A stretch of DNA of 26,524 nt from a virus (lineage: Duplodnaviria > Heunggongvirae > Uroviricota > Caudoviricetes), in the IMG/VR virus record IMGVR_UViG_2541047721_000003. The stretch is one strand, 5' to 3'. Positions 22,226 to 26,524 of this stretch are shown one piece after another. The position numbers and the translations under genes were made by a program. Below the pieces are notes generated by a model that saw only the letters and a list, made by a program, of their open reading frames with translations, was not told where the DNA came from and ran no database searches. The stretch's first letter is position 1; every line of letters begins with the position of its first letter.

Positions 22226-22636
22226 CTATGCGTTAAATACGGTGCACTGTGCGTCATCAATGAATGCGACTTGAGAGCGCTCTATCAGGCGGAGATTTGT
22301 CAGAATTTCTGATTCCCTTATGGGGTGAGGAGTGATCAGGTATTTATCCTGTAACCCGGCGATAATGGTGTATCGCTGTAGCTCCGAGCCAATTGTGTAA
22401 ATAAGGCGTCCGGTGTTAGACAAATCCAGTCCGGTGACGGGTTGTGTTCTGAGAACCGCCAGTTCAGCATCCTGTTTTGCGATAATTTCGGCTGCTTCTG
22501 CCGTGACTCTTGCGACTATCAGTGTGTGGGTTGCGACGTCCATATGATTATTTGCTATGGCTTTTTTCGCTACTACGTTTTCTGTCTTTGAAATTTCTTT
22601 CAGTGCTCTGATGATACCTTCTTCTTTTGCGTGCAT
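22226..22636 (-). CDS. Hypothetical early protein, 136 aa
   Basis: ATG at 22636 with GGAGAT RBS. No recognisable motif. Confidence 0.5.
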   Translation of the reverse strand: MHAKEEGIIRALKEISKTENVVAKKAIANNHMDVATHTLIVARVTAEAAEIIAKQDAELAVLRTQPVTGLDLSNTGRLIYTIGSELQRYTIIAGLQDKYLITPHPIRESEILTNLRLIERSQVAFIDDAQCTVFNA

Positions 22637-22704
22637 TTTTGTATCTCCGTTATTTGCGTGTGCGAATACCTCCGTTAATACGGATGGTTTTCTCGTTTTC
22701 TTAT

Positions 22705-22842
22705 TTAATTTGATGTTTTATTTGTATCGTTATTCACCAGTGAAAAACGTTCAATCTTTTTTACTGAATGAATAATTCGCATAATTCCAATAGCGCAGGC
22801 CACCGAAATAATCAGAACAAGCCATGAGATAAATATACTCAT
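22705..22842 (-). CDS. Small hydrophobic peptide, 45 aa (single predicted TM helix)
   Basis: Not in the ORF track (too short). ATG at 22842 overlaps the stop of the upstream gene (ATGA). Manual translation MSIFISWLVLIISVACAIGIMRIIHSVKKIERFSLVNNDTNKTSN. AT-rich. Confidence 0.3.
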   Translation of the reverse strand: MSIFISWLVLIISVACAIGIMRIIHSVKKIERFSLVNNDTNKTSN

Positions 22843-23081
22843 GCGATATTCCCCAGCTTATACGGTTCAATATGTTCCCCGCATTCTGCGGCACAGATCA
22901 GCTCGGAAAGTTCGTTAAGTGCATCCAGATCATCAGCGTAAAAAGCCACGTCATACAGACTCCGGATTGCCCTGGTCAATGAGTCACGGGCTGCACGTTC
23001 AGCATGAGCGCCTGATGCACTTAAGCGAAAATAAAAACGCTCAAGTGCTTTGTTAATGAGAGTTTTATATTCTTTGCCCAT
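22839..23081 (-). CDS. Hypothetical early protein, about 80 aa
   Basis: ATG at 23081, 12 nt after the upstream stop; the track's 23132 start is TTG. Confidence 0.45.
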   Translation of the reverse strand: MGKEYKTLINKALERFYFRLSASGAHAERAARDSLTRAIRSLYDVAFYADDLDALNELSELICAAECGEHIEPYKLGNIA

Positions 23082-23092
23082 CGCAACGCCCT

Positions 23093-23371
23093 TTAATCTG
23101 CTTTCTGAATTTCTGCTTCTGAATCCATACAAATAATTTCGATATAGGGTTCATCGCCATTAGTCTTACGTGCTTTTTCCGCTTCGCTAATGATTTCGTG
23201 TACAGTCTGGTACGGAAGTTCTACGGTCAGGCGCGTGCCGTTCAGATAAACGTAAGTAGCTGCATTTTTTTCGGATGGAACGACTCCATCAATAGCTGAT
23301 GCGCGTAATAACAGTTCACCGCGAAAATCAATAAAACGAATAAATACACCTTGTGCATGCTCTTTGGTCAT
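23093..23371 (-). CDS. Hypothetical early protein, about 92 aa
   Basis: ATG at 23371 (MTKEHAQGVFIRF...), 11 nt after the upstream stop; the track's 23431 start is TTG. Confidence 0.45.
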   Translation of the reverse strand: MTKEHAQGVFIRFIDFRGELLLRASAIDGVVPSEKNAATYVYLNGTRLTVELPYQTVHEIISEAEKARKTNGDEPYIEIICMDSEAEIQKAD

Positions 23372-23381
23372 AAAGCACCTG

Positions 23382-23732
23382 TTATAAATCAGCCTGTTTA
23401 ATAAAACTTTGTCCGCGAAGCAGACGATCAACTGTGCGAAGTGCTTCGTACAATGTGAAATCCTGCCCGAACTGATTGTCGCCGTTGCTCAGTGCAAAAA
23501 TGCGGTTTCCGGTAAATGGGTTGCGCTGGCATCTGTGAACCACGATTCCTGCTTTTTCAATCAGCCAAGTGTGTTCACCAATTTGTTTTACTGGGTAGCC
23601 ATCCGGCGTTGCGTGTGTTTCGCTCAGGCTGTAGCGAGAGTTGCTACGTGATGCACTGGTAGCGAAACGGTTAGCATGGCGTTCCGCACCGTTGCGGAAG
23701 CGCTGCTGTGAAGAATTGCGCTGTAGTTTCAT
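23382..23732 (-). CDS. Hypothetical early protein, 116 aa
   Basis: ATG at 23732. First gene after the AT-rich insert, in the position where P2/186-type phages carry small early regulators. Confidence 0.5.
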   Translation of the reverse strand: MKLQRNSSQQRFRNGAERHANRFATSASRSNSRYSLSETHATPDGYPVKQIGEHTWLIEKAGIVVHRCQRNPFTGNRIFALSNGDNQFGQDFTLYEALRTVDRLLRGQSFIKQADL

Positions 23733-23869
23733 ATTAAAACTCTGTACCTTCGGTAAGGTGTACTCGTGTCACCTTGTATTGATTTGTGGTATTTTTTTTG
23801 TGTGTCTAGGACTTGGACTGGCCGGTTCAGGTCCTGGCTTATGTTTAATTAAATTGTTAAGAGGTTTTC

Positions 23870-24061
23870 ATGTCAGAAGATAAAAAAGTTGTTAATTTGT
23901 TGAGTGAACTTAGTGCTGCTCTGGATAACATTAACCCTCCCAGGGTAAAAACGACGGGTGATAAAGACGCATTAAACACAGAGATTCATATATTACTGGC
24001 GTTAGTAACTGACAAAATTCAGCGTAAATACCCACCTGTCACACAACTGGTTGATTTTTAA
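23870..24061 (+). CDS. Hypothetical protein, 63 aa (plus strand, convergent with the 140-aa gene)
   Basis: ATG at 23870 with AAGAGG RBS 5 nt upstream. AT-rich. Own upstream region 23733..23869. Confidence 0.45.
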   Translation: MSEDKKVVNLLSELSAALDNINPPRVKTTGDKDALNTEIHILLALVTDKIQRKYPPVTQLVDF

Positions 24062-24067
24062 TTTGAT

Positions 24068-24490
24068 TTATGCCGGGCTGCTCCCGGCATCTTCTAGCTG
24101 CCATAATGTCTCGTCACCTGATAGAGCAAAACGAAATGAGTGAAGTATATCCCCCCGAGAGAAGCTCACGGCTACAGCTGCGGGAAAGTCAAATATAATC
24201 CCACCTTCATTTTTAAAACGATTACGCAATTGATAGGCTATCGGTTTGATTTGTGCAGGAAGAGTATCTATATCTCTTCCATTGACAACAGAATCTTTGT
24301 TTTCAAGTACTGATTTAGCGATTAGATATAGATGCCAGTAACTGGTTACAATTGTTACTCCTGTGATGTGTCGTAAATTAATTGCAATTCGTCCGTTATT
24401 ATGTTTTTCCGCAAGGTATTTCAGGTTATCAATTAATGCTTGGTCATTTTTTGAAATAGTTATTGTGAAATCTGACGTGTTTGTTTTCAT
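24068..24490 (-). CDS. Hypothetical protein, 140 aa (AT-rich cargo gene)
   Basis: ATG at 24490, 5 nt after the stop of the Cox-position gene. Rough manual count about 36% GC over 24241..24480. The 221-aa version from ATG 24733 overlaps the upstream gene and is low-complexity. Confidence 0.5.
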   Translation of the reverse strand: MKTNTSDFTITISKNDQALIDNLKYLAEKHNNGRIAINLRHITGVTIVTSYWHLYLIAKSVLENKDSVVNGRDIDTLPAQIKPIAYQLRNRFKNEGGIIFDFPAAVAVSFSRGDILHSFRFALSGDETLWQLEDAGSSPA

Positions 24491-24494
24491 ACGA

Positions 24495-25016
24495 TTAGTT
24501 GCCTCTGTTGTTTCTGAGTTGGTCCAGTTTTGAGCTTCTGCCTGTATAAACTCGCTTACCGTTAATGGTCTGGCAGTCTTCTTTATTAGCTGGAGAGAAC
24601 TTCCTTTTCTGGCGGTCATACGTCCAGTAACTTTTCCAGTTGTGCCATTCTGGGGGCTCGTGCTCTGGTAGCTCATCAGCCAACTTGTCCCACTCTTTGG
24701 CGTTAAACCACCATACTCCGTCTGAGTTTTCATCTTCCGGGTTTGTGCGCGTCTTGTGTCCCGGCATTTGACCGCGATGAATGGCTACGCGCAGTGCAGA
24801 TTTTGTTAGCCCAATATATGCCGCGCCTTTTTCCAGAGAGCAAAGCCCGGCGATCGGACCATCCAGCCGCAAAGTCGCTCCTTTTTTGTAGGAACGCTTT
24901 TTCTTGTTTTCTTCGTGCTCGTCGTCGTTGGCGGCATCAATGGATCCGCTGAGTGCGTCACTTTCCTGAAGTGGTTGGTGGTCAGATAACTCTTTATCGG
25001 CAATGAAGTCCCGCAT
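24495..25016 (-). CDS. Early regulator in the Cox/Apl position (putative HTH DNA-binding protein; possible excisionase / switch regulator)
   Basis: 173 aa, ATG at 25016 with AAGAGG RBS. Divergent from the repressor gene across an about 100-bp switch region. HTH-like segment LTKSALRVAIHRGQMPG. Larger than P2 Cox (91 aa), so assignment is by position only. Confidence 0.5.
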   Translation of the reverse strand: MRDFIADKELSDHQPLQESDALSGSIDAANDDEHEENKKKRSYKKGATLRLDGPIAGLCSLEKGAAYIGLTKSALRVAIHRGQMPGHKTRTNPEDENSDGVWWFNAKEWDKLADELPEHEPPEWHNWKSYWTYDRQKRKFSPANKEDCQTINGKRVYTGRSSKLDQLRNNRGN

Positions 25017-25075
25017 TTGTTATCCTCTTGCGTTGGTGCGCTTGTCGCGCCTTGTGATGGTTTGTTTTGGCTTGT

Positions 25076-25131
25076 AAAGATAACCAAAAGGTTATCTTTG
25101 TGCGAGAGGTTAATACTCAAATGGTTATCTT
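25076..25131. promoter_or_regulatory. Immunity-switch operator candidates
   Basis: Perfect palindrome AAAGATAACC-AAAA-GGTTATCTTT (25076..25099) plus a third GGTTATCTT half-site at 25123..25131 overlapping the proposed C start codon. Confidence 0.5.
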
Positions 25132-25462
25132 GTCAATAGACTACGCAAAAAAGTTACGTCAGATACGTAAGGCGGAAGGGTTAACACAAAAGCAGTTTGC
25201 GGATATTACTGGGTTGTCTTTGGCAACCATAAGGAATTACGAATCGGGGCAAAAGAACGCTAGAGCAAAAATCGTTGAGGCGGTTCTGCAAGTCGATCGC
25301 TTTGAAAAATACATGCTGTGGCTAATAAAAGATAAGACGCTACCTGTCGCCGGGCAGATTGCTCCGGCTCTCTCTCTTGATGGATCTATTCAGTCGGAGG
25401 GCGATCAGGTTTCAATCGGTATTACCCAAAAATCACCCCGATCAGGCCGCAATGTTGGCTGA
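25121..25462 (+). CDS. C: Immunity repressor C (HTH, XRE-like)
   Basis: 113 aa from ATG 25121 (GAGAGG RBS); the track's 25067 start is TTG. HTH segment LTQKQFADITGLSLATIRNYESG. Upstream of and co-oriented with int, as in P2. Confidence 0.7.
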   Translation: MVILSIDYAKKLRQIRKAEGLTQKQFADITGLSLATIRNYESGQKNARAKIVEAVLQVDRFEKYMLWLIKDKTLPVAGQIAPALSLDGSIQSEGDQVSIGITQKSPRSGRNVG

Positions 25463-25531
25463 CTCTACACATTGAGCGAATTACATATCGCAAGGAGTGT
25501 TTAGTTAATTTATCCGTTGGAGGGGCTAATC

Positions 25532-26524
25532 ATGTCGATTAAGCAACTCAAAGACGGACGTTATCAGGTCGATGTCAGACCGCAGGGGGCGGAAGGAAAG
25601 CGGATTCGAAAAATCTTTGCCCTGAAATCAAAGGCTCAGGAGTTTGAGAAGTATGTGTTACAGAACTTTCATGACAAGCCATGGCAGGCTAAGCCAGCTG
25701 ATCAGCGGCGATTATCAGAGCTGCTTGATGCGTGGTGGATGCTTGATGGGCGTAATCAGGCTTACGGGGATAGCTACAGGGTTAGGCTAGGGAAGGTTGT
25801 TCGTGAAATGGGAGATCCTCGCGCCAGTCAGATGACGCGAAAATTTATGCTTGAATATCGGTCAGAGAAATTACAGGCCGGATTAATGCCGTCCAGTATT
25901 AATCGTGACTTATGCGTACTGTCTACCATGTTCACGGTGCTGATTGAAGCTGAGGTCTTTCACAACGCGAACCCTGTACGCGGTATACGAAAACTGAAAG
26001 TTCAGAACACAGAGATGGCCTTTCTTTCTGATGATGAGATTGAACGGCTTCTTGAGCGACTGGAGGGTGATGCGCGTCGTGTTGCCATTCTGTGTCTTTC
26101 TACTGGTGCCCGATGGAGTGAAGCATCGGAACTACGTGGAGAGCATATCGTTGGCAACCGGGTGACGTTCTTTAACACCAAAAACGGAAAATCCCGTTCG
26201 GTTCCTGTGGCGGATTCGGTCGTGCCTCTGATTAAAACCCGTCGAACGGGGTTATTGTATCAGGTTGATTATCTGAAGTTCCGGGAGATTCTTCAGGAGG
26301 TGAAACCGGATTTGCCGAAGGGGCAGGCTACGCATGTCATGCGTCATACATTTGCCACACACTTTATGATGAATGGCGGAAATATTGTTACGTTGCAACG
26401 AATCCTGGGGCACGCAACGATTCAGCAAACAATGACGTACGCTCATTTTTCGCCGGACTTTTTACTGGACGCGATCAACTTTAATCCGCTGGCTGAAAGT
26501 GTCCATAAACTGTCCATCGATTAG
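25532..26524 (+). CDS. int: Tyrosine integrase (P2 Int-like)
   Basis: 330 aa from ATG 25532 (GGAGGGG RBS); the track's 25517 start is TTG. C-terminal catalytic region HVMRHTFATHF...LGHATIQQTMTYAHF with the conserved R/H/Y context. Stop codon is the last three bases of the window. Confidence 0.9.
   Translation: MSIKQLKDGRYQVDVRPQGAEGKRIRKIFALKSKAQEFEKYVLQNFHDKPWQAKPADQRRLSELLDAWWMLDGRNQAYGDSYRVRLGKVVREMGDPRASQMTRKFMLEYRSEKLQAGLMPSSINRDLCVLSTMFTVLIEAEVFHNANPVRGIRKLKVQNTEMAFLSDDEIERLLERLEGDARRVAILCLSTGARWSEASELRGEHIVGNRVTFFNTKNGKSRSVPVADSVVPLIKTRRTGLLYQVDYLKFREILQEVKPDLPKGQATHVMRHTFATHFMMNGGNIVTLQRILGHATIQQTMTYAHFSPDFLLDAINFNPLAESVHKLSID

Follow-up and report, generated by a model that had tools for sequence, protein, structure and literature searches.

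Two small convergent genes, which we call ORF140 and ORF63 (open reading frames, ORFs, for proteins of 140 and 63 amino acids, aa), lie directly after the cox gene of a P2-family prophage, beside its immunity switch. They were found in the IMG/VR virus record IMGVR_UViG_2541047721_000003, a stretch of 26,524 nucleotides (nt) from the Caudoviricetes, which in its full length is called the window below (Table 1). The cassette that they form is an orphan family, as yet uncharacterised, whose unusual layout is conserved and coupled to the switch. Our reading of it, tentative and rated below an even chance, is that the two proteins are antagonists whose expression belongs to opposite states of the immunity switch. 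We count as observations the reality of the genes, their conservation, layout and linkage, their status as cargo and their lack of known domains.

Table 1. Positions of the cassette, its candidate signals and the surrounding genes in the window.
Feature	Position	Strand	Remarks
DUF4761 gene	23382-23732	-	Early operon beyond the slot
Variable cargo slot	23733-24494		762 bp, GC 0.381; from the DUF4761 gene start to the cox stop
Putative extended -10 promoter element TGGTATTTT for ORF63	23787-23795	+	Proposed from the motif
14-bp stem-loop	23806-23837	+	Between the putative promoter and the ORF63 ribosome-binding site
ORF63 Shine-Dalgarno AGAGG	23860-23864	+	5 nt ahead of the ATG
ORF63, 63 aa	23870-24061	+	RefSeq WP_001287828.1, "hypothetical"
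ORF140, 140 aa	24068-24490	-	ATG start; RefSeq WP_000856387.1, "hypothetical"
Hairpin ATGCCGGG-ctgct-CCCGGCAT	Arms 24070-24077, 24083-24090		8-bp stem, 8 nt past the ORF63 stop
ORF140 Shine-Dalgarno GAGG	24502-24505	-	Within the final codons of cox
Cox-family gene, 173 aa	24495-25016	-	Heads the early operon; Pfam Phage_Cox 1.9e-07, phrog_23196 1.3e-116
Operator-like GGTTATCT/AGATAACC repeats	25076-25099 and 25123-25130		Near the C repressor gene
C-type helix-turn-helix (HTH) immunity repressor	25121-25462	+	Pfam/PHROGs scans
Integrase	25517 to window end	+	

ORF140 is the first gene past cox in the early operon, that of the promoter Pe, and its ATG follows the cox stop codon by 4 nt. ORF63 lies on the opposite strand and converges on it, with 6 bp between the two stop codons. 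Both products are soluble by computation, with masses of 15.6 kDa for ORF140 (isoelectric point, pI, 6.9) and 7.0 kDa for ORF63 (pI 5.6). A first-pass annotation, made from the letters of the window alone, had described a 140-aa minus-strand gene directly after the gene in the Cox position, a converging 63-aa plus-strand gene with a strong ribosome-binding site, and a pair rich in AT, and all three descriptions agree with our analysis. The composition check gave GC contents of 0.385 for ORF140 and 0.370 for ORF63, and GC contents at third codon positions (GC3) of 0.29 and 0.31. For comparison, GC content is 0.50 in cox, 0.49 in the DUF4761 gene and 0.531 in the whole window.

Since near-identical copies are uninformative on whether a gene is real, we sought diverged homologues instead. 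A phmmer search of 1.8 billion cluster representatives returned one distant relative of ORF140, P0014, a Salmonella protein of 138 aa (34% identity, E = 2.7e-7). A third version was found via prophages with a diverged cox-C region, in E. coli JNEC-KY174, where the two genes encode 131 and 64 aa. A profile search added close relatives of both genes (P0016-P0019), and further scans (two of genome contigs, one of a metagenome and two viral) gave no new types. We label the two E. coli versions type A (the pair of the window) and type C, and the Salmonella version type B. In every version the large gene is an early-operon gene that follows cox, directly except in one Salmonella contig (L012), where a 58-aa ORF stands between them. 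The small gene converges on the large one in every version, with the 3' ends touching or overlapping, and the sizes vary little (131-140 aa for the large protein; for the small one, 62-64 aa in the three types compared and 62-70 aa over all cases). As judged from these sequences, the convergent layout is a conserved design feature and not an accident.

The small proteins are 40% identical between types A and B and 27-31% between types A and C. The three-type alignment leaves M1, D4, L11, I21, P23, I39, L42, K49 and K53-Y54-P55 invariant in the ORF63 family. The large proteins, which share L23, L26, E28, I47, T49 and Y51, have an identity of 36% in the comparison of types A and B; for A and C the figure is 32% over pairwise-aligned codons and 16-17% in multiple alignments, and the BLASTP match is weak (E = 7e-5 over 43 residues). 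Both genes have diverged to a similar degree between types, with a proportion of nonsynonymous differences (pN) of ~0.42 against a saturated synonymous proportion (pS) of ~0.78 (0.77-0.78). The ratio of nonsynonymous to synonymous substitution rates (dN/dS) is 0.19-0.58 for closer pairs, several of which differ by just two or three substitutions. Because both ORFs are annotated in RefSeq and their proteins are conserved across three deeply diverged versions in the same layout, we regard them as real genes; by sequence comparison, they are protein-coding genes under purifying selection.

The small gene stands beside the large one in all 88 contigs that we read, which come from diverse prophage backgrounds, and it was never alone in them. 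The large gene can do without its neighbour: E. coli O22:H8 strain 154 (L054), JNEC-KY172 and OkiPb01677, three complete genomes, keep the large type-C gene and have the small one replaced. The partnership of the two genes is thus not obligatory. In L054, homology to type C breaks just ahead of the ribosome-binding site of the small gene and returns at the terminator hairpin, and the 840 bp in between carry unrelated cargo, a plus-strand ORF of 107 aa and an early-strand ORF of 172 aa (L054:1009-1828). These two ORFs overlap tail to tail by 23 bp, the 107-aa ORF is preceded by the same upstream promoter region, and neither has a match in Pfam, PADLOC or phage records. Taken at the level of sequence, the swap shows that the promoter-cargo-terminator unit is modular. 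Two Logan records hold further variants. In SRR7239523 (L051:1501-1762), a 497-bp deletion joins ORF140 at codon ~32 to ORF63 at codon ~10, and both genes are lost. In SRR13843907 (L052:1501-1635), a 1-nt deletion in an A-run frameshifts ORF140 and leaves ORF63 intact.

Homology of the window to phages P88 and Chuche ends at the start codon of the DUF4761 gene. In P88 this gene lies directly next to cox and the slot is empty. Other relatives carry other cargo: an early-strand gene for a 68-aa protein with two transmembrane (TM) segments in Chuche, Shae_phiSM, P88_4B11 and E. coli F95; in KY208, an early-strand ORF of 64 aa that is unrelated to it and not hydrophobic; and a different pair, of 151 and 87 aa, in E. 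coli G6/7 (L024:1671-2390). The empty slot of P88 and the other cargo of relatives bear out the first-pass annotation where it saw accessory cargo inserted beside the immunity switch. Its argument for a recent acquisition fails, as three versions with 17-40% identity occupy the same slot of related phages and the slot is AT-rich whatever its cargo (GC 0.38-0.45). The type of cassette is also independent of the repressor: the C proteins found with type A have identities of 100% and 73%, those found with type C 86% and 52-53%, and UTI89 and F95 have the same C protein and different slot cargo. On these comparisons the slot is a variable cargo slot and the cassette an old, shuffled resident. The slot falls inside the integrase-to-gpA ("integrase-primase") interval, which is reported as a minor hotspot of accessory and defence genes in P2-like phages and holds 8% of P2 defence systems in a 2026 survey (PMC13586616). 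It differs from the classical hotspots, namely old/tin, Z/fun and the slot between the tail genes and the CI repressor.

Some occupants of the slot deserve a description of their own. Directly after cox, the most frequent occupant other than the cassette is a small hydrophobic two-TM protein (58-68 aa, phrog_14475); the 68-aa gene is at L010:2284-2490 and L005:2473-2679 (F95/Chuche), and a gene for a two-TM protein lies between cox and the type-B pair in Salmonella (L012:5672-5848). The 151-aa gene of G6/7 is on the plus strand, belongs to phrog_28512 (annotated as of unknown function) and is convergent with cox, and the 87-aa gene is on the early strand, head to head with it. A P2-like prophage of Salmonella (GCA_005609425.1, L011:6766-7804) has a second tail-to-tail pair directly after the type-B pair, with a 259-aa gene on the early strand and a convergent 103-aa gene that overlap by 53 bp. 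This second pair has a weak PADLOC match to REase_II (E = 0.016), otherwise no family match, and none in phage records.

In all three types the small gene is preceded by the same elements in the same order: an extended -10 motif, then a strong hairpin and, next to the ORF, a good ribosome-binding site. The motif TGnTAnnnT occurs exactly once in each of these intergenic regions, 34-74 nt ahead of the start codon, as TGGTATTTT in type A, TGCTATGTT or TGCTATCTT in type B and TGGTATTCT in type C, and the joint chance of the three under shuffling is ~0.005. The stem-loop that follows it in the window is probably a hairpin of the 5' untranslated region, and strong hairpins are found at the equivalent site in type B (L011) and type C (L009). 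Just past the stop codon of the small ORF, inside the final codons of the large gene, all three types have another hairpin. In the window it is the centroid structure (-12.7 kcal/mol), and it probably terminates the ORF63 transcript; the earlier description had correctly put it in the 3' end of ORF140 and extended it to 24092, whereas it ends at 24090. Type C has a nearly identical hairpin, ATGCCGGGttacTCCGGCAT, followed by TTTTTCTTTT, a canonical U-tract, and type B has an 11-bp hairpin at the same place (z = -3.9). The hairpin sequence is thus kept between types A and C, though their proteins are at most ~30% identical. With these signals ORF63 looks like a promoter-to-terminator unit of the moron kind (in the sense of Hendrix and Juhala; lambda bor and lom and HK97 gene 15 are examples).

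ORF140 has no spacer that could hold a promoter, and the 270 nt ahead of it, which lie inside cox, showed no promoter-like motif. We therefore presume that it is transcribed from Pe and that C represses it in the lysogen. Upstream of ORF63 we found neither a LexA box nor a copy of the C operator, the GGTTATCT repeats being confined to the Pe/Pc region, and an Rfam scan of 22500-25600 gave no RNA family. The only match to the sigma-70 consensus in 23300-25300, TAGATA-18-TACAAT at 24323-24352 on the plus strand, lies antisense inside ORF140 and is directed towards cox and C; it is within chance (1 found vs 2.7 expected). A 22-nt direct repeat flanking ORF63 (23834-23855 and 24047-24068, 77% identical) was set aside as a probable chance similarity of AT-rich sequence.

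We searched both proteins and their diverged homologues against Pfam, PHROGs, NCBIfam and PADLOC without a significant match; hits to DUF1408 (E = 0.007-0.022, well below the gathering score) and phrog_5450 (0.04) were rejected as sub-threshold noise. Searches of PDB sequence profiles with both proteins gave nothing below E = 0.1, no defence model of PADLOC-DB v2 matched either protein in any of the three types, and no toxin superfamily or fold matched the ORF140 family in Pfam, NCBIfam, PADLOC or PDB sequences. DNA-binding domains (HTH, RHH, AbrB, Phd) are absent among the matches of all six family members, which argues against DNA-binding regulators. Hydropathy was tested for the same number of proteins, and the maximal 19-residue Kyte-Doolittle values of 0.3-1.3 indicate no TM segment; soluble proteins of this kind argue against membrane exclusion proteins. 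Both proteins are neutral to acidic, with pI 5.2-6.1 in the small family. The AlphaFold2 models of ORF140 are of low confidence (predicted local distance difference test, pLDDT, 42 and 55) and suggest a mixed alpha/beta protein, and fold searches with these low-confidence models gave no match. Comparisons by hhalign with P2 Orf78, B, Orf80, Orf81, Orf83 and Cox, and with CII, Fil, Dhr, Tum, Orf97 and Apl of phage 186, gave probabilities of at most 2.4%; for the alignment of the large family against 186 CII the probability is 0.1%, and ORF140 has no Pfam HTH. In the literature neither RefSeq accession is mentioned, and one proteomics supplement on sequence type 131 (ST131) has no entry for them.

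According to the reading that we tentatively favour, ORF140 would be co-transcribed with cox from Pe, with probable translational coupling between the two; a lysogen would not express it, and upon infection or induction its product would be one of the earliest proteins. The ORF63 unit, in the opposite orientation, would comprise the extended -10 promoter, the 5' hairpin, the strong ribosome-binding site, the ORF and a terminator housed in the 3' end of ORF140, and its product could be made in the repressed prophage. Transcription from Pe would cross the antisense strand of ORF63 on its way to the DUF4761 and replication genes. Since it must do so, the lytic switch should raise ORF140 and suppress ORF63, the shut-off of the latter proceeding by polymerase collision together with antisense pairing. 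The two soluble proteins would then antagonise one another through direct binding. We lean towards ORF63 as the active factor expressed in the lysogen, for example an inhibitor serving exclusion or host modulation, and ORF140 as the early counter-factor that would free the phage's own lytic cycle from it. This direction is favoured because of the moron-like unit, the first position after cox, and the fact that the large gene is tolerated alone and the small gene is never alone. The promoter, the terminator, the expression states, and the antagonism with its direction are what we infer in this scheme. Exclusion or antisense-coupled regulation by the pair is, in either form, a reasonable proposal.

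We count in favour of such an antagonism the conserved position, layout, sizes and hairpin, the similar divergence of the two genes and the independence of cassette type from the repressor. The 4-nt spacing to cox, the upstream motifs, the conservation of the putative terminator hairpin between types A and C and the modularity seen in L054 are also counted, as are the small gene never being alone, the deletion that removes both genes and the soluble, neutral-to-acidic nature of the proteins. Other points weigh against it. The promoter and terminator of ORF63 are read from motifs; a strict scan for -35/-10 promoters flagged nothing at the upstream motif, and the type-A terminator hairpin is weak, having no good U-tract. 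An interaction between the two proteins is a proposal, and the better model of ORF140 has a pLDDT of 55. Only three independent versions are available, which makes the argument from co-divergence thin. Prophages of the L054 type show, by their gene content, that the large gene does not depend on the small one, and the frameshift of L052 may oppose the preferred direction of antagonism, if it is real and not a homopolymer assembly error.

A broader proposal, which we consider unlikely as things stand, is that temperate phages have an undescribed class of antagonistic pairs, which we call "switch-split", and that the cassette belongs to it. One partner would be tied to Pe, and the convergent partner would be expressed in the lysogen and have its mRNA erased by read-through of the early operon. 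The slot also holds tail-to-tail pairs of unrelated sequence (172/107 aa in L054, 259/103 aa in L011), and this recurrence would make the layout a general design and not that of a single family.

Nearly as likely as an antagonistic pair is that the slot, which is prone to recombination, is shared by two functionally independent genes. ORF63 would then be an ordinary moron, expressed from the prophage for host fitness or lysogenic conversion, and ORF140 an ordinary early lytic accessory, acting for example in host takeover or anti-defence, like 186 fil/dhr or lambda kil. The many unrelated contents of the slot (none, the 68-aa two-TM protein, the 151/87-aa and 172/107-aa pairs) are what one would find in this case, as are the exchange of the ORF63 unit alone with retention of ORF140, the lack of a domain or structural link between the two proteins, and the standing of the integrase-to-gpA interval as a minor accessory and defence hotspot (PMC13586616). 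The persistence of the combination is harder to accommodate: three versions that are 17-40% identical keep both genes, their orientation, the 3' overlap and a similar divergence, and the small gene was not seen without the large one in the contigs read, in spite of their diverse backgrounds. A classical toxin-antitoxin-like pair, with ORF140 as a growth-inhibiting effector and the small acidic ORF63 protein as its antidote, is doubtful. ORF63 would be constitutive and would buffer leaky expression from Pe or counteract ORF140 from superinfecting relatives. In size and charge the two proteins resemble a toxin and its antitoxin, and, as in type II systems, two small adjacent genes co-diverge, the larger near-neutral and the smaller acidic. 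Two natural variants also count for it, one in which ORF140 is frameshifted beside an intact ORF63 and one that has lost both genes, and the early genes of 186 at this position, fil and dhr, inhibit the host (record annotation). Yet neither a toxin or antitoxin domain (Pfam, NCBIfam, PADLOC or PDB sequences) nor a PADLOC match was found, and the genes do not form an operon, so that the toxin-antitoxin membership first considered for them is not supported. They are convergent and separately controlled, by Pe for one and a private promoter (as read from its motif) for the other, unlike the autoregulated operons of type II systems, and they have no recognised toxin fold or DNA-binding antitoxin domain. 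Three complete genomes retain the gene of the supposed toxin and lack that of the supposed antitoxin. The supposed toxin would also already be repressed by C in the lysogen, so that the logic of addiction would not apply. Type I systems, which act through antisense RNA, differ in having a small hydrophobic toxin peptide, and there is none among the six proteins.

The least probable of the accounts that we considered is that the convergent transcription is itself functional and the ORF63 peptide incidental. The opposing promoter would damp read-through into the replication genes, or else read-through RNA antisense to ORF140 and cox would stabilise lysogeny in the manner of pE/pRE. The conserved promoter-like motif is directed towards cox, C and int, the weak U-tract of the type-A hairpin could allow read-through, and 186 has a leftward promoter, pE, directly after apl (record annotation). 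The likeness to 186, with its order apl-cII-fil-dhr, extends to the same position directly after the Cox/Apl gene, to the presence of host-acting early accessory proteins (Fil, Dhr) and to a leftward promoter that faces the early operon. It does not extend to the proteins, since CII, Fil, Dhr and Tum have no homology to ours (hhalign at most 2.4%), and ORF140 in particular has neither a similarity to 186 CII (probability 0.1%) nor an HTH. The convergent promoter proposed here would, unlike pE, drive a conserved protein gene that ends in type C at a good terminator. This canonical terminator with its U-tract means that read-through is not conserved, and pE-like read-through is ruled out as a conserved feature. 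What is conserved is the ORF63 protein, which keeps its length and an invariant motif and shows pN < pS, although changes in the DNA have reached saturation.

Several known systems resemble the cassette in part. Like morons, ORF63 is found where relatives such as P88 have the two flanking genes side by side; it has a deviant, AT-rich composition, may, judging from its motifs, have its own promoter and terminator, and lies in an orientation that would permit expression from a repressed prophage. Unlike them, it is found inside the early operon by the immunity switch and not in the late region, and it travels with an operon-oriented partner whose 3' end houses its terminator. The sieB-esc-sas superinfection exclusion of P22 and lambda, reportedly described by Ranade and Poteete, would be a parallel in its regulatory logic. 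By analogy, both would have a factor expressed from the prophage and embedded in the early operon; the phage's own early transcription would provide an antisense RNA and a protective protein, allowing escape from its own exclusion; and the lysogenic and lytic states would show reciprocal expression. Of the exclusion proteins, SieB resides in the membrane and Esc is an in-frame fragment of SieB, whereas the pair consists of two unrelated soluble proteins on opposite strands without sequence similarity to SieB, so that the logic alone is alike. With the P2 hotspots (old/tin between gpA and the portal gene, Z/fun in the tail genes, and the int-proximal slot) the cassette shares a variable AT-rich slot between conserved flanks and a cargo that is exchanged independently of the backbone. 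It differs in lying between cox and the first conserved early gene, and the cargo seen there matches no known defence family.

The window is a prophage of the P88/Xuanwuvirus type (P88-like Peduoviridae), whose integration site in E. coli chromosomes adjoins dmsA, and the cassette lies at its immunity end. Beyond the DUF4761 gene, the early operon continues on the minus strand with a 92-aa gene and then DUF4754. A perfect palindrome, AAAGATAACCaaaaGGTTATCTTT, lies at 25076-25099, and further GGTTATCT/AGATAACT copies are found at 25123-25130 and 24984-24991; together they are probably the C and/or Cox operators of a face-to-face Pe/Pc switch. Among E. coli chromosomes, those listed first match the DNA of the slot at 100% identity; O25b:H4 and further clinical isolates are among them, and identical DNA is present in the isolated, inducible phages vB_EcoM-569R5 and vB_EcoM-705R2. 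We found the 762-bp slot in 272 of 5,426 complete E. coli genomes, always in the chromosome and in a single copy per genome. The exact sequence of ORF63 occurs in ~18,700 indexed blocks of a collection of public assemblies, and carriers of the pair include the pandemic ST131 lineage and the model uropathogen UTI89. Two database entries classed as plasmids of E. coli also contain ORF140 at 100% identity, CP054248.1 (542 kb) and NZ_MK439959.1 (228 kb), which could reflect an integrated P2-like prophage or a misassigned replicon.

The pair is thus present in 5% of complete E. coli genomes, yet both of its proteins are annotated just as "hypothetical" and match no family. If the two genes are independent, they are an ordinary pair of orphan accessory genes. 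If instead their products antagonise each other under reciprocal control, the cassette would be a compact new route to an activity specific to the lysogen that does not harm the phage's own lytic growth, and it would add the slot directly after cox to the known hotspots of P2. Should the switch-split class prove true, temperate phages would have in such pairs a means to combine a lysogen-specific activity, such as exclusion or host modulation, with self-immunity during their own lytic cycle.

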